DNA of 64,000 nt from Candidatus Bathyarchaeota archaeon (GCA_963717465.1 OY970340.1:1760001-1824000), one strand, 5' to 3'. Shown: positions 44,702 through 64,000, numbered from the stretch's first letter. Made by a program: numbers and translations. The notes: generated by a model not told the origin, from the letters alone.

Positions 44702-46385
<1,684 letters not shown>

Positions 46386-46559: not shown

Positions 46560-46712
46560 AATTACTATTTCAACCTACATAATAATTGAATCGTGTTAGG
46601 CTTTCGAGCAGGCGATATTTTAATTAAGGAAGTAATCAAAGACCATATCGTACTCTGCAACGCTGATTCGTTTGTAAGTCTGCGTTGGAGAAGCCATGTT
46701 GAGAGAGGGTAA
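46560..46712 (+). pseudogene. 3' remnant of an MNT nucleotidyltransferase gene
   Basis: GDILIKEVIKDHIVLCNADSFVSLRWRSHVERG* overlapping the HEPN start, as in MNT-HEPN pairs (recall). Confidence 0.5.
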
Positions 46713-46923
46713 GCTATCTTGGTGTTTTAAACAGAAAAATGGCATTCGAATGGTTGAGCCCAACGGAGATTTGGCTAAAGCTTATTTGAAAAAGGCGATA
46801 GGCGCTCTAAACACTGTGACTGTTGCACTTAAAATCCATGAGACTGACTGGATAATTACCACCGCATACTACGCAAGATATTTCGCGTTATACAGCTTGC
46901 TTATGAAATTAAGCGTAAAATAA
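46696..46923 (+). pseudogene. HEPN-domain gene, 5' half
   Basis: AYLKKA...WIITTAYYARYFALYSLL; stops at VK*. Confidence 0.7.
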
Positions 46924-47752: not shown

Positions 47753-50700
47753 ATGAATAAAAAAAATCCAATAAATGCAATTTGCATAATATTGTTGGTT
47801 ATCTTAGCATTCTCAATGGCTACTAACACGGCCTTTGCATCAGTAGTTAACAATAATGCTCCAGTTGTGGCAAGGATTTGGACTGACAAGCCAGATTATC
47901 ATCCTGGGACTTTGGTGACTATTTATGGGTCCGGTTTCACTTCGAATGGTTACATTTTCTTAAGTGTGACCAAGGAGAAGGATGAGTCCGTTACGAACTT
48001 ACATGCAAGAGCGGATTTAAACGGGGATTTTGTGGCTCATTATCAAATTGACAAACAAGGAGCTCCTCTCTACAAGATAGTAGCCACAGACGGGAAAACA
48101 ACCGCAGAAACAGTATTCACAGACTCAATGACAATTTCAACGCAGCCAATTTCAGCCCACATCGATAGTGGGCAATCGGCGACTTTATTTAGTGTTGTGG
48201 CTGGTGGTAATAGTCCGTATACATGGCAATGGTATGACGATTACGGAGCTATCTCTGGCGCCTCTGGTTCAGGCGACACGGCATCTCTGACTGTTTCAAC
48301 AGCGGATACGGGCATCTACGTAGATTTCACTGACAATTCACAGGCGACTATTCAGTCTGACCCTGTGGGTGTTACAGTTAATCCAGCGTTGAGTGAGACT
48401 GCTTCTGCTTCGCCAGCTGCTGTGGACGATGGTCAACCCATCAGTTTAACTGTTACTCAGACTACAGGTACTGGGTCTTTCACGTATGAGTGGCAGTATA
48501 GTACTGATGGTTTTTCTTGGAGTGATATTCCGTTTGATTCTGGTGATCAGAATCCTTATTTTGATTCTGCGGGTTATGGTGGTTCAGCGTTGGAGTTTCA
48601 GGTTAACGTTACTGATGGTACTGGTGCTTCTCAGATTTTCAGCACCAGCTTTGTCACTGTGAATATTGCTTTGAGTGAGACTGCTTCTGTTTCGCCATCA
48701 ACGGTGGGCGCTGGTCAAATCATCAGTTTGTCGGTTACTCAGGGTACTGGTACTCCTCGTTTCACGTATGAGTGGCAGTATAGTACTGATGGTTCAACCT
48801 GGAATGATATTCCTTTTGGGTCTGGTGATCATAATCCCTCGTTTGATTCTATGGATTATGCGGGTTACACGTTATACTTCCAGGTTAACGTTACTGATGG
48901 TACTGGCGCTTCTCAAATTTTCAGTGCAGGCTCTGTTGCTGTGGGCAGCGTGCTTTCTCAGACTTCCGCTTCCGCCTTTCCTGGCGCTGTTGACGATGGT
49001 CAATCAATCAGTTTATCAGTAGACACCTACACCACTGTCAATAGTCCTTACACGTATGAATGGCAATACAGCACAGACGGCGTCAATTGGTACGACATTC
49101 CGTCTGGGTCTGCTGATCAGAATCCTTCTTTTGACTCTACGGGCTATGCGGGTTTCACGTTGGAGTTTCAGGTTAACGTTACTGATAGTACTGGCGCTTC
49201 TCAAATTTTCAGTGCAGGCTCCGTCACCGTGAATACCGCGGACACTGGAGGCTCCACCCCCCCGGATAGTGGGTTGAGTGAGACTGCTTCTGCTTCTCCT
49301 GATGTGGTGGATGTTGGTCAAAGCATCAGTTTGTCGGTTACTCAGACTACTGGTACTGGTCCTTTCACGTATGAGTGGCAATACAGCACTGATGGTTTTA
49401 CTTGGAATAATATTCCATCTTCTTCATTGCAGAATCCAAGTTTTGATACGTCTGATTTGACAGCTGGCACCTACTACTTCCAGGTTACAGTTACTGATAG
49501 TACTGAGGATTCTGCTACCTTCTATACGAGCTCTGTTACAGTGAATGCTGTGTTGAGTGAGACTGCTTCTGCTTCGCCATCAACGGTGGATGCTGGTCAA
49601 AGCATCAGTTTGTCTGTTACTCAAAACACCGGCACTAGTTCTTTCTCGTATGAGTGGCAGTACAGCACAGATGGCGCCACATGGCAGGACATTCCCTCTG
49701 CATCTGGTGATCAGAATCCCTCGTTTGATTCTACGGATTATGCGGGTTACACGTTATACTTCCAGGTTAACGTTACTGATGGTACTGGTGCTTCTCAAAC
49801 CTTCAGCACAAACTCTGTTACTGTTGGCAGCGCGTTTTCTTCAACTTCCGCTTCCCTCTCTCCTAGCACTGTTGACGATGGTCAAAGCATCAGTTTATCA
49901 GTTGACGCTCCTACCACTGGTACTGGTCCTTACACGTATGAATGGCAATACAGCACTGGCGCTAGCGGTGAATGGCAGGATATTCCGTTTTGGTCTGCTG
50001 ATCAGAATGCAACTTTTGATTCTACGGGTTATGCTGGTTCAACATTAGAGTTCCAGGTTATAGTTAATGATTCTGCGTCGGCTCAATTTACTGTGTATGC
50101 AGGTTCCGTCAATGTGAATAGTGCTTTGAGTGAGACTGCTTCTGCTTCGCCATCAACGGTGGATGCTGGTCAAAGCATCAGTTTGTCGGTTACTCAGACT
50201 ACTGGTACTGGTCCTTTCACGTATGAGTGGCAATACAGCACTGGTGGCAATAATTGGCAGAATATTCCGTCTGGGAATGCTTCTGCTGCTACATTTAACA
50301 GTACGGGTTATGGTGGCGGCGCTTTGAGTTTCCAAGTTATAGTGACTGACTCTGCAGGTGCGTCGATTACGGTTGGCGCTGGCTCTGTCACTGTTAACTA
50401 TGCTTTGAGCGAGACCGCTTCAGTTTCTCCACTTGAAGTTGATATTGGAGAAGACATCAGTTTGTCTGTTACGCAGACCACCGGCACTCCCACTTTCACG
50501 TATGACTGGCAATACAGCTACAATGGAGTTGATTGGTCTGATACTCCTCTCTTTTACTCGCAAAACCCTGGCTTCGGACTCGGCGAGGACTATTTCCTTG
50601 CGGGAACTTGTTACTTCCACGTTATAATCACCGATAATACTGGTGCGTCGATTACGGTTGGTGCTGGATCTGTCACAATAAATAACGCTTTATATGAGAC

Positions 50701-53700
50701 TGCTTCTGCCTCACCATCAACGGTCGATGTTGGCCAACCAATCAGTTTGTCCGTCACTGAAAACACGGGCACCGCGCCTTACACGTATGATTGGCAGGTT
50801 AGCTCTGACGGCGGCTACTCTTGGAGTAATGTTACATCGGCTACAGTGCAGAATCCGACCTTTGATACATCCAGTTTATTTGCGGGCACGTACGAGTTTC
50901 AAGTCATAATCACTGATGAAACAGGCGCTTCTGCTATTTTCTACACTGGCTCCGTCACCGTGAATAGCGCGTTGAGTGAGGTTGCTTCTGAATCACCAAC
51001 CACAGCAGAAGCTGGACAAACAATCAGCCTATCAGTCACCCAATCAACAGGCACTGCTCCCTACACTTACGAGTGGCAATACAGCACTAACAGTAGCGTG
51101 TCTTGGGCGGATATTCCATCCGATTCCAGTTATCAAAATCCCTCCTTTGACACCACAAACTATGGAGGCCAACTCTTAGAGTTCCAAGTCATTATCACAG
51201 ATGGCGCAGGCGCTTCTCAAACCTTTACCACAAGTACCGTCCTCATAAACCCTGCAACCAGTGGGTTAAGCGAGACTGCTTCAGTCTCTCAGAGCGTTGT
51301 GGACGCTGGACAAACTGTTAATTTAACGGTTACTCAGACAACAGGTACCGGTCCCTTCACTTACGAATGGCAAGTAAGCACTGACGAAACAAACTGGAAT
51401 AACATTCCATTGTACTCACTGCAGAACTCAAGTTTTGATACGTCTGATTTGGCTGCTGGCACCTACTTCTTCCAAGTTATCGTCACTGATTCCACTGGCG
51501 CAACTGGCACCTTTAGCGCTGGCTCGGTTACAGTAAATTCTGCCCTGAGTGAGGTTGCTTCTGAATCACCAACCACAGCAGAAGCTGGACAAACAATCAG
51601 CCTATCAGTCACCCAATCAACAGGCACTGCTCCCTACACTTACGAGTGGCAATACAGCACTAACAGTAGCGTGTCTTGGGCGGATATTCCATCCGACTTC
51701 AGTTATCAAAATCCCTCCTTTGACACCACAAACTATGGAGGCCAACTCTTAGAGTTCCAAGTCATTATCACAGATGGCGCAGGCGCTTCTCAAACCTTTA
51801 CCACAAGTACCGTCCTCATAAACCCTGCAACCAGTGGGTTAAGCGAGACTGCTTCAGTCTCTCAGAGCGTTGTGGACGCTGGACAAACTGTTAATTTAAC
51901 GGTTACTCAGACAACAGGTACCGGTCCCTTCACTTACGAATGGCAAGTAAGCACTGACGAAACAAACTGGAATAACATTCCATTGTACTCACTGCAGAAC
52001 TCAAGTTTTGATACGTCTGATTTGGCTGCTGGCACCTACTATTTCCAAGTGATTGTTAACGATTCTGCGGGTGCAACAGCCACCTTCAATGCTGGCTCTG
52101 TTACGGTGAATTCTGCTTTGAGTGAGTCTGCTTATGCATCACCCGGCATGGTGGATGTCGGTCAATCCATCAGTTTATCAGTTACTGATTCTACGGGTAC
52201 TGGTCCTTTCACGTATGAGTGGCAGTACAGCACTGACAACGGTGTAATTTGGAATAACATTCCGTCGTATTCGGAGCAGAGCCCGACTTTTGATACGTCA
52301 GGCCTAGGATGGGGTGTCTACAGCTTCCAAGTCATCATTACTGATCAAACAGATGCGTCACTCACGTTGAGCACGGACCAGGTGACAGTGAATCCCGCTG
52401 TTGAAGCAGCTATTACTCCAACCTCAATTACCATGGATGTTGGTCAATCTGAAATTTTCACTGCTTGGTCGATAGGCGGCGCTGACTGCATTGGTTTCCA
52501 ATGGTACGTGAACGGTGTACCCCAAAGCGGTCAGGTCGGATCTACATTTACCTTTACGGCAACTTCAACAGTCGCTCCGTCCATAACCGTAACAACAACC
52601 GATGATTTAGGTCAAACTTCACCTCAATCATCATCTCCAACTATCACAATAAACCCAGGTTTGAGTGAGATTGCTTCTGCATCGCCGAGTGTGGTGGATG
52701 TTGGTCAACCTGTCAGTTTATCAGTTACTGATTCTACGGGTACTGGTCCTTTCACGTATGAGTGGCAGTACAGCACTGACGGCATAAACTGGAATGATAT
52801 CCCATCCTCGTCATCACAGAACCCGAGCTTTGATGCGTCAGGTTTGACTGCTGGCACTTATTATTTCCAGGTGATTGTTAATGATTCTGCGGGTGCGTCT
52901 GCTACTTTCAGCACTGGCCAAGTAACGGTGAATGTTGATCCTTCAATTAATGTGCAACCCTCTGCAGCCACCATTGATAGTGGGCAGTCTATTACTTTGA
53001 CTTCAACTGTGCAGGATGGTACTGGTTCATACTCTTGGCAATGGTTCGACAGCAGCGGCATAATTACTGGTGCATCTGGTACAGGAGCAACTGCTTCACT
53101 GCCTGTTTCAGCCTCTGACACCGGCGTCTTACGTAGTCTTCACTGACACCGGAGTAGCACCAATGGTGAATGTTAATTCAACCAGTGTTGATGTCACAGT
53201 TGATGCTGCACCCACAATCATCACTCAGCCTTCTAGGGCGTATATCGAGAGTGGGCAGTCTATTACTTTGACTTCTACGGTTCAGGGTGGTTCTGGCTCG
53301 TTCTCTTGGGCTTGTTATGATCATACTGGTTCTCTTGTCGGATCTGGCTCGGGGACAACTGCCTCGCAGGTAATCACAACTTCTGACTTTTATGGCTACT
53401 ACTTCGTCTTCACTGACACCGGTGTAAGTGCTGGTGCGACTCCAGCGTCAGCGGCGACTGTTACTTCAAACGGTGCTCCCGTTGTTGTTCTTTCTGCGCC
53501 CTCCGTTTACATTCAGCCTTCTTCTGTAACGATTGATAGTGGGCAGTCTATTACTTTGTCTTCTTCCGTGGAGGGTGGTTCTGGCGATTTCTCTTGGCAA
53601 TGGTATGATCAGACTGGCGCTATAGTGGGCGCTTATGGCTCGGGTACCACGGCTTCCTACACGTTTAGTTCTTTGAGTAGTGATGATGGTGTCTACGTGG

Positions 53701-56700
53701 TGTTCACTGATGTTTACGTTTCTTCTGGTGCTACTCCATCGTCGTTGGCGAGTGTTTCTTCTAGTAGTGTTGATGTTACAGTTGATTCTGCACCCTTAGT
53801 TTCCACTTCGCTTAATAGTGCGACGATTGACAGTGGTCAGTCTATTACTTTGACTTCTACGGTGTCTGGTGGTTCTGGCTCGTTCTCTTGGGCTTGTTAT
53901 GATCATACTGGTTCTCTTGTCGGATCTGGCACGGGTGCTTTTGCTTCGCAGTCGGTCTCAAGTTCTGATGCAGGCTACTACTTCGTGTTCACTGACACGG
54001 GTGTTTCTTCTGATGCGGCTCCAGCGGTAACTGCGTCTTCAAACAGTATAGCCGTTTATGTTAATGCGGCGCCCTACGTGAGTATTCCGCCTTCTTCGGC
54101 GACGATTTACAGTGGGCAATCTGCAAATTTGACTTCAGTTGTATCTGGTGGCAGCGGCGATTTCAACTGGCAATGGTATGACAACAGCGGTGCTATATCG
54201 GGTGCTTATGGTTCGGGTTCAACGGCTTTCTACTTGGTTTCAAGTGGTGACACTGGAGTCTACGTGGTGTTTACTGACACTGGCTTAACTTCCGGTGCGA
54301 CTCCGGATTCAACGGCAACTGCTTCTTCTAATAGTGTTGATGTTTCGATTGGTACTGCGCCTTCGATTAGCATTCAGCCTTCTTCTGCAGTTATTGACAG
54401 TGGGCAATCTATTACTTTGACTTCAACTGTGCAGGATGGTAGCGGCTCATTCTCTTGGCAATGGTATGATCAGACTGGTGCATTATCTGACGCTTACGGT
54501 ACGGGCACAACGGCCACTTACGTGTTTGGCTCTTCGGGCAACGGCACCGGAATCTATGTAGTCTTCACTGACACTGGCGTAACTCCGGCGGTGAATGTGG
54601 CTTCAAACAGTGTTAATGTTACTGTTGATGTTGCGCCTTCAATCATCTCTCAGCCCTCTTCCGCAACGATCGACAGTGGACAGTCGATAACTTTAACTTC
54701 AACGGTGTCTGGTGGAACTGGAACTTTCACTTGGACATGCTATACTCACACGGGCACTCTAGTTGGTTCTGGCTCAGGGCAGTCTGCTTCTCAGGTAGTC
54801 TCAACTGCTGACTCGGGTTATTACTTTGCGTTCACTGACACGGGTGTATCTTCCGGCGCGACCCCCACGGCAACCGCTCAGTCAAGCGGTGCTCAAGTTA
54901 TAGTTGACTCTGCACCCCAAATTAGCTCTCAGCCCTCTTCCGCAACCATTGACAGTGGACAGTCGATAACTTTAACTTCAACCGTGACAGGTGGCACCGG
55001 CTCATTCACTTGGAAATGTTACACCCACACAGGTGCTCAAGTTGGCTCCGGCTCGGGAACGTCTGCCTCGCAGATAGTCTCAACTGCTGACGCGGGTTAT
55101 TACTTTGTGTTCACTGACACAGGCGTATCTTCCGGCGCAACTCCCACGGCAACCGCTCAGTCAAACAGTGCTCAGGCTAGGGAGGATTCTGCTCCGTCAG
55201 TCAGCTCTCAGCCTTCTTCTGCGACTATTGACAGCGGCCAGTCTATTACTTTGACTTCTACGGTTCAGGGTGGTACTGGATCATTCACTTGGCAGTGGTA
55301 TAATCATGCGGGTACTGCTGTTGGTAGTGGTTCTTCTGGTACGACTGCTTCGCTTTCTGTTTCATCTGCTGATTCGGGTTACTATGTTGTGTTCACTGAT
55401 TCTGGAACTGGTTCTGCCACTCCAACCAAGACTGCTACTTCAAGCAGTGTTCAAGTTACCGTTGATTCTGCTCCGTCAGTCAGCTCTCAGCCTTCTTCTG
55501 CGACTATTGACAGCGGCCAGTCTATTACTTTGACTTCTACGGTTCAGGGTGGTACTGGATCATTCACTTGGAAATGTTACACCCACACAGGTGCTCAAGT
55601 TGGCTCCGGCTCGGGAACGTCTGCCTCGCAGATAGTCTCAACTGCTGACGCGGGTTATTACTTTGTGTTCACTGACACAGGCGTATCTTCCGGCGCAACT
55701 CCCACGGCAACCGCTCAGTCAAACAGTGCTCAGGTTGCTGTTGATTCTGCTCCTTCAATTGGTGCACAACCTGTTTCTGCTACCTTGGACAGCGGCCAAT
55801 CAATAACGTTGTCGTCTACGGTTACGAGAGGCACTGGTTCATTCACGTGGCAATGGTACGATCACAATGGCGTTGTAACGGGCGCCTCTGGAACTGGCGT
55901 ATCCGCTTCTTATGTCGTTTCAAGCGGTGACACGGGAATTTACGTGGTCTTCACTGATGCTGGTGTTAGTGCAGGTGCTTCTGGATCAAAGACTGCAACT
56001 TCAAGCACTGTTGATGTTACAATGAATGTCGCTCTAACAGTTTCTGTCAGTCCAGCTGGTCCAGTGACAATGAACATTGGACAAACTGAGACTTTTACAG
56101 CCAATCCATCTGGAGGCTCCGATAGTTACTCAACGTACACTTGGTATGTGAATGGCATCTCACAGAGCGGATATGATACATCGATGTTTAATTATACAGC
56201 CAATTCGTTAGGTTCTCTATCCATAACTGCTACTGTCACCGATAGTTTAGGAGTGACTTCATCCCAATCATCGACTTGCGATGTTACAGTCAACGATGTT
56301 GCTCCAACTATCACTGCCCCGGTCAATGTAGTAGCGTTCGCTAACAGCGCAGCAGGAGCCAGTGATGTCTCGTTAGGTTCTCCAACTGTTGGCAGCATCG
56401 CTTATTCAACTGCAGACTTATCAGTTACCAACAACGCCACCGCCATATTCCCAGTAGGCACAGTGACAGTTCTCTGGACTGTAACGGACCCAAGTGGACT
56501 AACTGCAACAGCCCTTCAAACCGTTATAATAAACCCATACTCGCCAACATCTTCATCTTCGCCGACACCAACACTTACCCCAACACCGACCCCTACTACA
56601 ACCCCAACGCAATACCAAACTTACACTGTGACCGCAACGGCACCCAACGGCACGGTCGTCAACGTCACAATCTATGGAGACATCAACAGCAGCCAAATCT

Positions 56701-57120
56701 CAAACATGACGATCTCAACATGTCAATCTGCAGCAACAACGGCTGTCTCTTTCACAATAACTGGTCAAAGCGGAACACAAAGCTTCCTTAACATGACAAT
56801 TTCAAAGAACGACGTATTCTATGGAACAGTGCCGGCAGTGAGCATCGACGGCAAACAAGCTGTTAACCAAGGTTACGTGCAAGACGCAAACAACTATTAT
56901 GTGTGGTTCTCAACAAGCTCCGGTACAAACCAGGTCTCAATACTATTTGCAAGGGCGACTAGGCAGCACAACTCCAGCATCCGCCAATGAGCCAGCTTTG
57001 GACTCATTTGCCCAATATCTATCCGTAGCAGCAGCATTAATAATCTTGGCAGCTATAATTGTAGGACTATTCGTGAAAAGAAGAAAAGACAGACAAAGCG
57101 GCATCACGATCTTAAACTAA
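47753..57120 (+). CDS. giant (~3,120 aa) Ig-like-repeat cell-surface protein with HYR domain, PT linker and TM anchor (two 1-bp frameshifts, near 53129 and 56951)
   Basis: signal peptide; ~95-aa repeats (..GQSISLSV..TYEWQYSTDG.. and PSSATIDSGQSITLTSTV..); HYR-like FPVGTVTVLWTVTDPSG; TM + KRRK; three ORFs join when one base is removed at each junction. Confidence 0.88.
50974..52040 (+). repeat. near-identical tandem duplication, 573-bp period (two Ig repeats)
   Basis: sequence from ~50974 recurs at ~51547; ORFs 50976 and 51549 translate almost identically. Confidence 0.9.
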
Positions 57121-57284: not shown

Positions 57285-57556
57285 AAATCAGAGATACATG
57301 ACTGCACAATAATTCTGGGTGATTACCTATGCAAAATGGGCTTCTTGACAAAAAATTGATTGATGACATAGAAAAAGCCAAGCAAACCAGAGTTGACATG
57401 CAATACTACGTTGCCCAAGAACTCAGCGAACGAGAAATTAAACGCACTGTTGAAGCCTCACGTAAATTTGTGCTAGACGTTGAAAAAGAGATGATGAATC
57501 TTACTGTTGAACAGATTGAAAACATTAATAAAATACGTTTCTCACGTAATTTTTAA
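57285..57556 (+). pseudogene. HEPN-domain gene, 3' half
   Basis: KSEIHDCTIILGDYL then (1-bp shift) NGLLDKKLIDDIEKAKQTRVDMQYY (R-x4-Y). Confidence 0.7.
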
Positions 57557-57712: not shown

Positions 57713-57816
57713 TTGAAATTTTATAGGTCTGTTAGTATTATATAACCTGAGCGGTTAGTCAGAGCAGGAAGCGCGCCCAAGCGCGAGCAACTGGCTAAGG
57801 AAGTTTGAAAGGAGAG
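57713..57816 (+). promoter_or_regulatory. promoter, leader hairpin and strong SD of the acetylene-hydratase-like gene
   Basis: TTGAAA-N17-TATTAT overlapping TTATATAA; hairpin 57755..57798; AAAGGAGAG. Confidence 0.5.
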
Positions 57817-57824
57817 TAAGCCAT

Positions 57825-60071
57825 ATGTCTGAAATCAAGAATGTGATTTGTGCAGTCTGTGACAAAGGATGCCCGCTTAAGGTCAAAGTAAACAACAATA
57901 AAATGGTTAGCGCCCAGGGACTTATGGATTCCAAAGTTATATGCATGAAACCTCAATTTGCAAATGATTACATCAATCATCCGCAAAGATTATTGTATCC
58001 ACTGAAGAACGTAGGCTCAAGAAGAGGAGAGCAAAAATGGAAACGTATCACTTGGGAACAAGCATTAGATGAAATTGCATTTAAGCTGGAAAAAATTATA
58101 AAAAAATATGGACCGGAATCATTCGCCGTTTCTACATTGCCAGTTAATGCAGGGGTAGATCAGGGAATGGTTCGAAGATTAATGAATCTGCTTGGTAGTC
58201 CGAACTGGATGAGCGGTTTATCGATGTGTATGGGTAATACTGCGCAGGTTCACAGAACTACTTTAGGCTGGTTCCCAATGGGTGATTATACACATGCAAA
58301 ATGCATTGTATATATTGGTCATAATCCACATGAACAAAACTGGGTGATGGAATACTATCAGCTATTGCAGGCTAAGGAACGAGGTGCAAAACTCATTGTT
58401 CTTGATCCACGCAAGTCACAGTGTGCAAATCTTGCTGACCTCTATTTACCCCTCCGTTATGGCACAGATGCCGCGATGCTCTTAGGTTGGCTGAATATAA
58501 TTATTAACGAAGAGCTTTATGACAAAAAGTTTGTTAAAAAATGGACAATTGGCTTTGACGAACTTAAGGAAAGAGTGCAGGACTATCCATTGGAAAAGGT
58601 TGCCAAAATAACCGACTGCAAGGCTGAGGATATCAAAAAAGCAGCCATGATGTATGCGACACAAGGACCTTCAATCATCCCTTGGAGTGTTAATTTTGAC
58701 ATGAATGTAAACAGTACATCCCTTATCCGCTGTCATAGTATTCTGGCTGCCATCTGTGGATATCTAAACAAAAGCGAAATGCTGGGCTATCTAAATCCTG
58801 ATGTTGTGACAATTTCAGAAGTAGAAATGCATGAAGCATTGCCTGACGAAAAGAAAAAGATACAGTTGGGAACCAAGACTTATCCATTATTTACTTATGA
58901 AGGCTTGAAAAAACTGAATGAACCCTCTAAAAGAGTGTATGGACGGGAGTACTGCAATGTTATATCCAGTTTCATGGCGCACCCACCTACGGTATTTAAG
59001 GCAATGCGAACTGGATCGCCATATGCTGTTAAGGCATTTTTTATCTTGGGCGGAAATCCACTGATGGGATATGCCAATCAGCAAGGTGTTTTTGAGGCAA
59101 TGAAAAATCAGGAACTGATTGTGAGCTTTGATCACCTATTAAATCCGTCAGCTCAATTGGCTGATTATGTCTTGCCTGGGGATGCTTGGCTGGAAAGACC
59201 ATCCTTATTTCCGCTATTCGATTTAGCGCCAATAGCCATTCCTTTTCAGCAAGCCCTTGTGTCTCCTGGAGAGTGCAAAGACTTGTATTTCTTCATTAAG
59301 GGTTTAGCGGATCGGTTGGGGTTAAAGGAATATTTTCCATGGAATAATCTTGTTGAGTTTATGGAATACAGAATTCAAAAATCAGGACTGAAATGGGAAG
59401 CATATGAAGAAACGCCGTTGAAGGAGTTAATGACTATATCTCAATTGTTTTCGCCATTTATGATGAAAAAGCCCATTACGAATAAAGCGATTTCAAAGGT
59501 CGGATTCATGCTGTCGTTGCCTTTTACAAAAGGTGTAGGGGTTGCCACTCCTTCGGGAAAAGTTGAGTTGAAAAGTAGTATTCTCGAAGGGCTTGGATAT
59601 GATTCGTTGCCTTATTATAAAGAACCACAACAAACCCCGATTTCAAATCCAAAGCTGGCTAAAGAGTACCCGTTGACACTGTTCATAGGATTGAGAGAAG
59701 GACCATACTATAATACCAATCTGCGTCATGTTGAAGGTTTAAGAAAGCAGTTGCCTAATCCCCTTGCTCTGATTCACCCGTCGGATGCTGCAAAATATGA
59801 TATTCAAGCAGGCGATTGGATTTGGGTTGAAACCACTCATGGCAAGGTTAAAATGATGGCGCAGCTTGATGAAGTTCAACCGGCTGGAACAATTCGCGTC
59901 CCACATGGATGGTGGTTGCCTGAGTTGGAACCTGGAGAGAAAACCGGATTTTCAGGTGCCATGTGGCATAATGATGGGTTGGTCATCAGTGATGATGATT
60001 GGAATCTTGACCCTGAACAGGGATTGCCAAATCTGAGAGGCGGATTACTGGCCAAGGTTTCGAAAATATAA
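57825..60071 (+). CDS. acetylene hydratase-like W/Mo-bis-PGD enzyme (DMSO reductase family)
   Basis: C9-x2-C12-D13-x2-C16...C40-M-K42; GSPNW...MC135MGNT; LRYGTDAA; TPSGKVEL; DDDWNLDPEQGLPNLRGG. Confidence 0.9.
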   Translation: MSEIKNVICAVCDKGCPLKVKVNNNKMVSAQGLMDSKVICMKPQFANDYINHPQRLLYPLKNVGSRRGEQKWKRITWEQALDEIAFKLEKIIKKYGPESFAVSTLPVNAGVDQGMVRRLMNLLGSPNWMSGLSMCMGNTAQVHRTTLGWFPMGDYTHAKCIVYIGHNPHEQNWVMEYYQLLQAKERGAKLIVLDPRKSQCANLADLYLPLRYGTDAAMLLGWLNIIINEELYDKKFVKKWTIGFDELKERVQDYPLEKVAKITDCKAEDIKKAAMMYATQGPSIIPWSVNFDMNVNSTSLIRCHSILAAICGYLNKSEMLGYLNPDVVTISEVEMHEALPDEKKKIQLGTKTYPLFTYEGLKKLNEPSKRVYGREYCNVISSFMAHPPTVFKAMRTGSPYAVKAFFILGGNPLMGYANQQGVFEAMKNQELIVSFDHLLNPSAQLADYVLPGDAWLERPSLFPLFDLAPIAIPFQQALVSPGECKDLYFFIKGLADRLGLKEYFPWNNLVEFMEYRIQKSGLKWEAYEETPLKELMTISQLFSPFMMKKPITNKAISKVGFMLSLPFTKGVGVATPSGKVELKSSILEGLGYDSLPYYKEPQQTPISNPKLAKEYPLTLFIGLREGPYYNTNLRHVEGLRKQLPNPLALIHPSDAAKYDIQAGDWIWVETTHGKVKMMAQLDEVQPAGTIRVPHGWWLPELEPGEKTGFSGAMWHNDGLVISDDDWNLDPEQGLPNLRGGLLAKVSKI

Positions 60072-60184: not shown

Positions 60185-60592
60185 TTATAGGTCTCTTTGT
60201 TCTAACAAATAAAGCGAGTTTACTGCAAAGGGAACATGCCAGTGTGAAAAGAACCCTCTAACAGTTGCAACTGCCCCAACAGCACTTTTCTGACTCAACG
60301 TATCATCTGGGTTTTTGTTCAATGGCTGTTTAAGCACCCATTGCTTGAATGACAAAACCTTATGCTCCCATTTGTAACGCTGCTCGTCATGGCTTGTCCC
60401 GATATTACGCGTTGAAGTAGGTTGGTGAGACCGCTTTATTGGGTCCCAAGCGCGTATGATTTCTTTTAGTGCTTCCACTTCGTTGGTTTGCGTTTTCTTT
60501 GCTATACAAAGTCCTGATGATGCGTATACGTTTCGGAGTTTATCCATTCCGATGCTTTGGATGTCGTGGTAGGTATCTACAGTGTGTCCCAT
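60185..60592 (-). pseudogene. tyrosine integrase fragments
   Basis: MGHTVDTYHDIQ...LRNVYASSGL...EALKEIIRAW (C-terminal catalytic GH/Y region) joined to an N-terminal-like piece SQKSAVGAVATVRGFF. Confidence 0.55.
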
Positions 60593-60603
60593 TAACGGTT
60601 CGA

Positions 60604-60639
60604 GGTGGGATTCCCAACCACCAACAGTTATATCTAATT
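60604..60639 (+). promoter_or_regulatory. shared operator + BRE/TATA, copy 1
   Basis: GGTGGGATTCCCAACCACCAACAGTTATATCTAATT. Confidence 0.75.
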
Positions 60640-60667: not shown

Positions 60668-61498
60668 TTGAAAAAACTAGCTTCAATTCTCTTCACTAGA
60701 ATTCCATTGGAGGGTAACACTAAAACAAGGCTCACATTAAAAGAAGAAGGTGGGATTCTAACGTCTGAAGAAGCTGCAACATTCTATAAGGCTTCAATGA
60801 TGGATGTAATTGAAGTCTTTATAAAAGTTATAAAATCATTTAATGAAGAAAAACCCAACTTGGAAAACAAGTTATTCATTGCTTATGAACCTAAAGAAAA
60901 AGAAGAAAATCTAAAAAGAATACTTGAAAAATCGGATCTGCAAGGTTTATCAAATGATTCGATAGAGCTTTTTGCAACGAGCGGCAACAATTTCAATGAG
61001 CGTATTGCTATGTCTTTTGAATATGTTTTCAAAAAGGGTTATGAATCGGCAGTTATGGTTGGAGGAGACCACCCGCTTATTCAGCCACGCGTTATTAAGG
61101 AAGCATTTGAGCATCTTGAAAGATTGGAGAGACAATACCATAGAGGAGCAATCGTTGCTGGGCCATGCATAGCAGCAGGTCTTTATTTAATTGCACAAAC
61201 AAGCAACGTGCCCATTGACTTCAGAGATGTCTTCTATAATACTCAGGGTATAACATCCTTGGAAGTTTATACCAAAAAAGCCATTGATACACAAGTTCCT
61301 TTTGCAATCCTCGAATTGGTTACCGACGTTGATGTGCCATCTGATTTAGCTGCTTTAGTAGTGAATCTTAGATCTATGGATTACGCTTCTGAATTTCAAC
61401 CAAGCCTCAATCTGCCACGGCATACACTATGGTTCATAAAAAAACTCAACCTTAGTATAATTACCCCTCCAAACCAAAGAGATATAACGCTTCATTAG
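60668..61498 (+). CDS. DUF2064 / CofC-like GT-A nucleotidyl- or glycosyltransferase
   Basis: FTRIPLEGNTKTRL, VMVGGDHP, AGPC..AGLYLI, LVTDVDVPSDL. Confidence 0.78.
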   Translation: MKKLASILFTRIPLEGNTKTRLTLKEEGGILTSEEAATFYKASMMDVIEVFIKVIKSFNEEKPNLENKLFIAYEPKEKEENLKRILEKSDLQGLSNDSIELFATSGNNFNERIAMSFEYVFKKGYESAVMVGGDHPLIQPRVIKEAFEHLERLERQYHRGAIVAGPCIAAGLYLIAQTSNVPIDFRDVFYNTQGITSLEVYTKKAIDTQVPFAILELVTDVDVPSDLAALVVNLRSMDYASEFQPSLNLPRHTLWFIKKLNLSIITPPNQRDITLH

Positions 61499-61974: not shown

Positions 61975-62010
61975 GGTAGGATTCCCAACCACCAACCATT
62001 ATATCTGATT
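61975..62010 (+). promoter_or_regulatory. shared operator + BRE/TATA, copy 2
   Basis: GGTAGGATTCCCAACCACCAACCATTATATCTGATT; 32/36 identical to copy 1. Confidence 0.75.
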
Positions 62011-62089: not shown

Positions 62090-64000
62090 ATGACTGAGCA
62101 AAAGAAGTTCTTATGTGCATTCTGTGGAGTTCAGTGTGAAATCCTTGCTACTGTTACAAAAGATGGATTCCTGACTGCTGTCGAGCCTCGGCCCGATCAT
62201 CCAATTAGCCCCGGAGCATATTGTCGAAGGTGGACTTATTATACAGAATACCTATACAAATCAGACCGCCTCAAATATCCTATGAAGAGAGTTGGAAAAC
62301 GAGGCGAAGGCAAGTGGCAGATAATTTCATGGGAACAAGCATTTGACGAAATAGGTGCTAGACTCAGGGAGATAATTGCGAAATACGGCTCAGAAGCAAT
62401 ATACGTTTGGCACGGAACATCCCGTGGAAACCCATATGCAGGAGATACAAAGTTCGTTCGCGCAATCGGAAGCCCAGCTATCGGAGCTCCTGGAGCTGAA
62501 ATCTGATTTGCGCCCAACGTCCGTAGTTTAGGGATAACTTACGGCGTTGGACAATGCCTATCTACAGTGATACCTGGCGTAACGAAATCCATGTATAGCA
62601 CGTTCAATCATACTGAATCAAGTGAATTTATCTGGCCGATGTATCTTCGCGCAATTGAAGCGGGAATGAAGCTTATAACACCAGACCCTAGATTCACTGA
62701 GGTTGTTCGTAATTCTGCCCTCTGGCTTCAGATAAGACCAGGTACGGATGCTGCACTCAACTTGGGCATAGCACATGTGCTCATCGAGGAAAATCTCTAT
62801 GACAAAGAGTTCGTGGAGAAATGGTGTTATGGTTTCGAGCAATTGAAGGAACGCGTCAAAAACTACACACCTGAGAAAGTTGAGGAGATCACTTGGGTTC
62901 CAGCGGACAAAATCAGAGAGGCAGCAAGGACACTGGCAAACAACAAACCACAGTCGGTTCCATTACTAAACTATGGACATACTGAGCCATTCTCAAATAG
63001 CTGGGGAATCAATCGTTCGCGGCACATTCTACCCGCGCTGCTCGGAACCGTTGACGAAGAAGCTGGCGAAACGATGCCAAGCAAACCAAAATGGCGCACT
63101 CTCGAAGATTTCGACGAGCCTGACATCATGCCCATGGGACAAAGAAAGAAATTCCTGAATACTTGGAAAAATCACAAATTCGGAATGGTAGGCTGGGAAG
63201 TTCAAGAATTAATTGGTCAAGCCCAAACCAGAGGATACTGGAAAGGAAACCCATATCTTGGATGCACAGAAGTACATGGATACTTAATGACTCCTTGGAA
63301 TCTAGTAACTCGGTCTGTTCTCGAAGGCAAACCCTACCCTATAAAAGCTTTCATAGGACATCAAGGTTCTGCTCTCAGATGCGGACCCAACCAGAAACAG
63401 GCTCTTGAAGCACTGAAACAAATCGAATTCTACGTTAACATGGACACTTCAGTCATGACTCCCGATGCGATGATGGCAGACTATGTATTACCAGCTGCAA
63501 GTACAGCTGAAAGACCCATGGTCGACCTTATGATTAGTAATGCTTCAGAAATGATCTTTAACGCAAGTGCAGACGCGGTTATTCCGAAGAAAATACCAGG
63601 TCTGTGGGATCACAAGGAAGACTATGAAATGTGGCGGGAATTTACAAAGGCAATCAAGGGTCAAAAATGGATAGATGAGCACTGGCCTCAAAAGAACTAT
63701 TACGAACATTATGAGTGGGTATTCAAACCGGCAGGTATGACGCTTAAAGAAGTCGCTGAGAAGACCCCTATCCTTCCAATATTGGAACCAAGAAGATACG
63801 CGTTGCCAGACTCAGAAACTGGTGAGCCAAGAGGATTCGGAACACCCTCTGGAAAGGTCGAACTATACTCAACAATAGCTGAGAAAGTCGGATGCGACCC
63901 AATGGGTAACCATACAGATCCAGCAGCAAGTCCTTACAGCACGCCAGATATCGCAGCGGAATATCCATTTATTCTGACAACTGGAGCTAGACATGGAGAA
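62090..64000 (+). CDS. DMSO-reductase-family molybdopterin oxidoreductase with in-frame TGA at codon 139 (putative selenocysteine); runs off the window
   Basis: CAFCGVQC...C [4Fe-4S] motif; after TGA 62504..62506 the same frame stays open to 64000 with PDPRFT, IRPGTDAAL, ADYVLPAA, TPSGKVELYS, YPFILTTGAR. Confidence 0.88.
62514..62550 (+). promoter_or_regulatory. SECIS-like hairpin (bacterial type) just 3' of the in-frame UGA
   Basis: CCAACG/CGTTGG, CCGT/ACGG, AGTT/AACT stems, bulged U, GGGA apical loop. Confidence 0.6.

Follow-up and report, generated by a model that had tools for sequence, protein, structure and literature searches.

A bathyarchaeal protein of the acetylene hydratase subfamily with a conserved catalytic core and an altered substrate pocket

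The window analysed here is a stretch of 64,000 nucleotides from a Candidatus Bathyarchaeota archaeon. On its plus strand, at 57825..60071, an intact frame runs from ATG to TAA and encodes a bis-PGD/[4Fe-4S] enzyme of 748 amino acids that belongs to the subfamily of acetylene hydratase (AH). PF00384 and PF01568 both scored above cut-off, placing the protein in the DMSO reductase (MopB, bis-PGD) superfamily; the NCBIfam scan returned no model at its cut-off. BLASTP against Q71EW5, the Swiss-Prot AH of Syntrophotalea (Pelobacter) acetylenica, gave 396 identities over 757 positions (52%), and the best solved relative was 2e7z_A (E 2.8e-262; next PDB chain 1.8e-57). An AlphaFold2 model built from a 24-row alignment (pLDDT 88.9, pTM 0.90) matched 2e7z with a Foldseek TM of 0.93/0.96, and the others among the matches listed, DMSO reductase (MopB) family members like it, reached at most 0.78 by query length. 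Judged from its sequence, the likeness of the protein to AH is far beyond chance. A preliminary description of the locus, which had proposed alignment to AH by BLAST and by structure, is thus borne out in its core claim of an AH-subfamily member with an intact catalytic core in an archaeal genome.

The archaeal AH-like protein has no predicted signal peptide. Its ORF is a single module with neither a fused cysteine desulfurase nor a partner subunit gene, and no gene for an Fe-S protein, a membrane subunit or a transporter adjoins it; the gene is a solitary one, with short gene fragments on either side (57329-57556 and 60185-60592). Upstream on the plus strand we noted by eye putative TATA-like elements (TTTTATA at 57719-57725 and TTATATAA at 57738-57745) and a putative Shine-Dalgarno-like AGGAGA at 57810-57815.

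The surroundings hold several further features. At 47753-56990 lie two very large ORFs that overlap, of 1797 and 1306 aa, with Ser/Thr-rich Ig-like repeats; the first has a signal-like N terminus, and a membrane-anchor-like tail lies in another frame near 56899-57120. The two ORFs probably represent a single surface protein interrupted by a frameshift. They are flanked by two 75-aa fragments (46696-46923 and 57329-57556) that we take to resemble the two ends of a HEPN-type gene, an assignment for which Pfam and PHROG gave no support. On the minus strand, 60185-60592 encodes a 135-aa ORF of no known family, and short DNA matches elsewhere in the genome, together with many divergent contigs in run X1, suggest that it is a remnant of a multi-copy element. 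A DUF2064/TIGR04282-like (CofC-like) gene follows at 60668-61498, between the two MopB genes of the window; the genome contig carries a split second copy at 735698-736529 and a third fragment at 1826545-1826799, 2 kb beyond the second MopB gene and behind a TrmB regulator gene. The DUF2064 gene and that second MopB gene are each preceded by a copy of one 28-base element (within 60604-60635 and 61975-62006; 26 of 28 bases identical), which contains a short palindrome and ends in a TATA-like sequence. It has no other genome copy at that likeness and is absent before the AH-like gene; possibly it is a site for a common regulator.

The second MopB gene begins at 62090 on the plus strand and runs past the window end at 64000, giving 758 amino acids on read-through. 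Its product is 31-33% identical to AH and to the archaeal AH-like protein, falls outside the AH subfamily and has Gly at position 13, as had been described. An in-frame TGA at 62504-62506 occupies the metal-ligand codon (UGA, selenocysteine). Eleven such MopB paralogues are found in the genome; in ten of them the N-terminal frame stops at the ligand TGA, in the eleventh it breaks off immediately upstream of that codon, and some carry further frameshifts. The genome also encodes two tRNA-Sec genes, SepSecS and a SelD with one TGA. The TGA-bearing paralogues are 30-39% identical to AH; because they lack Asp13 and lie outside the subfamily, they are uninformative on the substrate of the AH-like enzyme.

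The catalytic core of AH can be followed residue by residue along the AH-like gene. C9-x-x-C12-D13-K14-x-C16 (57849..57872, plus strand, as for all positions below) comprises three cluster ligands, the catalytic Asp13 (codon GAC, 57861-57863) and Lys14 (AAA, 57864-57866), a subclade-specific residue where AH has Ile14. The fourth cluster ligand, C40 (AH Cys46), and K42 (AH Lys48) follow at 57942..57950, and we take this lysine to be part of the N-terminal cluster-motif signature. The metal ligand C135 (TGT; AH Cys141) and the adjoining M136 (AH Ile142) lie at 58227..58232, W173 (AH Trp179) at 58341..58343, and W287 and D292 (AH Trp293 and Asp298) within 58683..58706; at 59694..59711, R624 (AH Arg606) is kept and Y629 replaces AH Phe611. 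All the residues singled out in the preliminary description (C9, C12, D13, C16, C40, K42, C135 and M136) are therefore present as claimed.

To place these residues in the subfamily, we aligned 125 rows, namely the best 120 of 1455 matches at E <= 1e-50, the archaeal AH-like protein among them, and five added rows (four named AH sequences and one full-length form of P0008; Q71EW5 is row P0160). The lowest identity to AH among these proteins is 43%. Asp13 is found in 121 of the 125, the other four being truncated at the N terminus. In AH numbering, Cys141, Trp179, Trp293 and Asp298 are each invariant (125/125), and Lys48 and Arg606 occur in 122 and 116 rows. Across 114 other homologues, 147 positions show at least 95% conservation and have the same residue in AH; the archaeal AH-like protein keeps 144 of them. 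The second-shell Trp179 and Trp293 of AH, kept as W173 and W287, are named in PMC7970554. According to PMC12096430, the N-terminal [4Fe-4S] motif of the AH subfamily comprises Cys9/12/16/46, Asp13 is specific for this subfamily, whose remaining members are uncharacterised, and AH tolerates the exchange D13E whereas D13A is inactive. The Asp13/Cys141/Trp179/Trp293/Asp298 signature is common (121-125 of the 125 rows, best 120 of 1455 plus five) to what have been called the MopB 'AH' family (Wells et al. 2023, PMC10100899) and the putative AHs of Coriobacteriales (PMC7858054). As far as sequences can tell, Asp13 is a mark of the whole subfamily and does not single out acetylene, since every homologue with an N terminus has it.

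Seven strings quoted in the preliminary description as shared with AH all match both the ORF and authentic AH sequences, and they differ in reach. Among the same 125 proteins (best 120 of 1455 plus five), LYPLKNVGS.RGEQ.W is confined to seven, six AH-group rows and the archaeal AH-like protein, and DDDWNLDPEQGLPNLRGG, found in eight, is likewise nearly AH-specific. Others are broad: MNLLGSPNW occurs in 36 and C..CD..C in 120.

The substrate pocket gave a different picture. Ile113, Met138, Ile142, Trp179, Trp293, Trp472 and Phe611 surround the active site of AH (PMC7970554). At the six variable pocket positions the archaeal AH-like protein shares no residue with AH (0/6): the changes are I14K, I113V, M138L, I142M, W472F and F611Y, giving K14, V107, L132, M136, F465 and Y629. 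In the 2007 account by Seiffert, Ile14 is said to form part of the hydrophobic ring of AH. F465 (59217..59219) replaces AH Trp472 where the alignment is ungapped, and five of the six changes are conservative. In addition, N290, F291 and N294 (within 58683..58706) take the place of AH S296, T297 and the near-invariant Q300, and an insertion of about 22 residues (about residues 545-566; 59457..59522) is common to the archaeal protein and its Lys14-bearing relatives; the model has pLDDT below 50 across residues 540-566. Across the 125 rows (best 120 of 1455 plus five), 30 proteins match AH at none of the six positions, 36 at one, 50 at two, three at three, one at four and five at all six, these five being four Syntrophotalea proteins and one row 99% identical to AH. 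P0019, at 82% identity to AH, already departs at two of the six. The preliminary description had pointed to the Met after the ligand Cys as a sign that the substrate may differ; M136 is indeed there, but six pocket positions differ rather than one, and the comparison of funnel residues that it proposed showed none of the six to be identical to AH. Lys14, Val107, Leu132, Phe465, Tyr629, the insertion and the TGA of the neighbouring gene were absent from it.

Phylogenetic analysis placed the archaeal AH-like protein and authentic AH in a common clade. In an IQ-TREE analysis (LG+G4, 33 chosen rows, 716 columns, supports read per bipartition), the AH subfamily formed a clade of 31 of the 33 rows (100/100) that contained an inner AH clade of 22 rows (99.9/100) with both the archaeal AH-like protein and authentic AH. 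Two FastTree runs, on 84 and 96 rows, recovered the same supported clades. The AH group itself comprised three rows (100/100) on a stem of its own of 0.41 substitutions per site, with the archaeal protein outside. On the earlier proposal to place the protein in a tree, then, it falls inside the AH subfamily and the inner clade and outside the three-row AH group. Branching within the inner clade is weakly supported (18/34 and 76/53), so the archaeal protein may yet be the sister of authentic AH. The archaeal protein joins P0002, P0003 and P0135 (76, 69 and 66% identical to it) in a small subclade (100/100) that sets it apart from other uncharacterised members of the subfamily. Lys14 occurs in these four proteins only among the 125 rows (best 120 of 1455 plus five) and is one of 13 residues fixed in the four and present in less than 5% of 114 others; the subclade also shares N290/F291, the loss of Gln300 and the insertion. 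The AH group, on its long branch, has 63 group-specific residues. A candidate AH-specific residue is Arg678, two residues past the conserved His676; it is shared by P0155, P0156, P0158, P0160, P0016 and P0019, whereas the archaeal protein and essentially all of the 114 other homologues have Trp there. One inner-clade homologue, P0013 (919 aa; one cluster member is Eubacterium), has a fused N-terminal flavodoxin-like domain.

The named members of the inner clade are all bacteria (Syntrophotalea, Acidaminococcus, Eubacterium, Clostridia, Peptococcaceae and Coriobacteriia), and we asked how widely the gene occurs in archaea. No match was found in 119 congener genomes at E <= 1e-40. Matches were present in 9 of 331 family genomes (best 42%) and, in draws of 400 genomes each, in 2 from the order (best 42%), 26 from the class (best 41%) and 2 from the phylum (best 40%). 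These samples overlap and many of their genomes are incomplete; across all of them no relative exceeded 42% identity. Of the 27 archaeal MopB loci placed in the tree (L096 was dropped as too short, and loci from the family, order and phylum samples were left out), all fell outside the AH subfamily clade; four had Asp13 and none had the full Asp13/Cys141/Trp179/Trp293/Asp298 set. As side observations, archaea of the same class (L016, L075-L101) possess a number of separate MopB branches with a Cys ligand, in which position 13 is His, Met, Ser, Gly or Gln, and an AOR gene lies close to the MopB locus in L016 and in the Dehalococcoidales locus L001. Archaeal homologues of the AH family are already known in bulk, making up 5.95% of the family in Wells et al. 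2023 (PMC10100899). In the literature on acetylene hydratase outside subscription papers, we found no archaeal inner-clade member, archaeal acetylenotroph or Lys14 variant. A lone archaeal member among bacterial relatives suggests lateral acquisition as the likely origin of the gene, with anaerobic bacteria as its putative donors.

Its absence from all 119 congeners, the short gene fragments around it and an assembly with many split genes could also mean that the gene is stray, silent or misassembled and has no role in the archaeon. Genes split by frameshifts are seen genome-wide (AORs, MoeA, MMSDH, ProA, ribosomal L1 and SMC), which suggests indel errors in the assembly. The gene, however, lies on a single contig of 3.05 Mb, 11.5 kb from an archaeal 16S gene (44821-46313). 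Five of seven organism-named matches to the Spt5 encoded in the window are from Bathyarchaeota or Bathyarchaeia (92-94% identity); the remaining two are listed under bacterial names, probably through misbinning. The frame of 748 codons is unbroken, retains nearly all the conserved positions counted above and is preceded by TATA-like and Shine-Dalgarno-like elements. Its codon score falls at the 25th percentile and its GC3 at the 40th among 1668 host ORFs, and codon use this ordinary gives no compositional sign of recent transfer. We consider a gene without a role very improbable.

Related genes at 27 metagenome loci had no common neighbours and no shared pathway. The host genome encodes a tungstate transporter (WtpA above cut-off, next to genes for WtpB and an ATPase), cofactor genes (three MoeA matches, MobB, a MobA-like match below cut-off and MoaD), two full-length and several split AORs, an ADP-forming acetyl-CoA synthetase and Zn-ADH-type genes, with an Ahr-like Zn aldehyde reductase below cut-off. 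The search for an acetaldehyde route covered PF00171 and PF00465, with DmpF/MhpF, Pta and Ack outside it. PF00171 returned methylmalonate-semialdehyde dehydrogenase and ProA and no acylating acetaldehyde dehydrogenase, and the single PF00465 match was glycerol-1-phosphate dehydrogenase; these absences are soft, because the genome is 88% complete by markers, many genes are split and DmpF/MhpF-type enzymes lay outside the search. In Pelobacter, acetaldehyde is oxidised by an acetylating dehydrogenase and by non-acetylating tungsten AORs (PMC4275255), and an AOR route may be open for an aldehyde product in the archaeal host.

Much of this would suit a true AH, with which the archaeon would hydrate acetylene to acetaldehyde, to be oxidised by its tungsten AORs, either for growth or to clear a compound that inhibits its metalloenzymes. 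The protein has the equivalents of C9/C12/C16/C46, D13, K48, C141, M140, W179, W293, D298 and R606 of Q71EW5/2E7Z (EC 4.2.1.112), is likewise a single cytoplasmic chain of the same predicted fold, lies in the same inner clade at 52% identity, and is the sole row of the 125 (best 120 of 1455 plus five) beyond six AH-group rows to carry LYPLKNVGS.RGEQ.W. Transporter, AORs, aldehyde reductase and acetyl-CoA synthetase could supply the remaining steps, as Pelobacter too has non-acetylating tungsten AORs for acetaldehyde. Acetylene hydration may also extend beyond Syntrophotalea, since acetylene fermentation in one enrichment was ascribed to a member of the Coriobacteriales that carries AH homologues (PMC7858054). 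The conservative nature of most pocket changes and the small size of acetylene mean that acetylene may fit the changed pocket, and the departures of P0019 suggest that the pocket may tolerate change. Yet the archaeal protein, off the branch of the AH group, matches AH at none of the six positions, with Lys for Ile14 and Trp472 lost, and it differs further by S296N, T297F, Q300N and the insertion. Its gene lacks an adjoining gene for an Fe-S protein or a transporter, in contrast to the loci described in PMC7858054, and its Asp13 is shared by the subfamily. The preliminary description had offered acetylene fermentation or a related hydration. The first finds little support, given the subfamily-wide Asp13, the six pocket changes and the lack of an acylating acetaldehyde dehydrogenase via PF00171; the second, with another substrate, is the best reading. 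We regard it as unlikely that the protein is a true AH.

Chemistry of another kind in an AH-like site has precedents. AH is the nearest characterised relative of the catechol dehydroxylases (Dadh, Hcdh, Cadh and Cldh; PMC7028382) and, at 27% identity, of metallopterin-dependent ergothioneine synthase (MES; PMC9516567), which like it use bis-MGD and carry out redox or sulfur-transfer chemistry. No other member of the family is known to be non-redox, and even for AH a mechanism based on redox chemistry has been put forward (PMC12096430); with its long branch and 63 group-specific residues, AH may be the exception in its clade. The archaeal protein is, however, far closer to AH than MES is, and keeps the Asp13/Trp179/Trp293/Asp298 set. 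The catechol dehydroxylases and CaMES are set apart by partner subunits or a desulfurase fusion, neither of which the archaeal gene has, and no electron-transfer subunit gene was found alongside it or among 32 scanned neighbours of related loci. Redox or group-transfer chemistry in the archaeal protein therefore appears improbable.

The reading that we prefer, and to which we give about an even chance of being right, is a stand-alone, non-redox tungsten hydratase for a substrate other than acetylene, perhaps larger or anionic. By analogy with AH, W(IV)-bis-PGD would be held reduced by the [4Fe-4S] cluster, and Asp13 would activate water bound to the metal, which would then add to a C-C multiple bond and yield a carbonyl. 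Lys14, Val107, Leu132, Met136, Asn290/Phe291, Phe465 and Tyr629, together with the insertion, would reshape the access funnel. Lys14 would be well matched to a carboxylate or some other anion, and an alkynoic acid such as propiolate is, as a guess, the first candidate. The carbonyl product could be oxidised by host AORs or by a malonate-semialdehyde-type dehydrogenase. AH does not hydrate propyne or ethylene (PMC6308299), so a new substrate would need a new pocket. The inner-clade relatives in Acidaminococcus, Eubacterium, Clostridia and others, and a related contig (L058) titled human gut, would fit a substrate commoner than acetylene. Some side activity of the hydratase on acetylene in vitro is possible, at somewhat less than an even chance.

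The archaeal AH-like protein is a real variant within a known, almost unassayed subfamily, from which only one acetylene hydratase had been purified (PMC7858054). Its catalytic core is subfamily-wide, and the AH pocket occurs in no more than a few proteins, all on a single long branch; acetylenotrophy should therefore not be called from Asp13 alone. As a soluble single chain near AH with a natural set of pocket substitutions, the protein lends itself to asking whether the core suffices for acetylene hydration and which other compounds members of the family hydrate. We offer one bolder proposal, tentatively and as a doubtful one: either the bathyarchaeon took up a working AH from anaerobic bacteria and coupled it to its tungsten aldehyde:ferredoxin oxidoreductases (AORs) without an acylating dehydrogenase, as the first archaeal acetylenotroph, or the proteins of the Lys14 subclade form a second kind of tungsten hydratase, acting on a new substrate such as an alkynoate. 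A positive result with acetylene would extend acetylenotrophy to the Archaea. The depth of the AH clade has been used to argue for ancient acetylene feeding (PMC10100899); if the Lys14 subclade is a second tungsten hydratase, acetylene would be a late specialisation of an older hydratase family.
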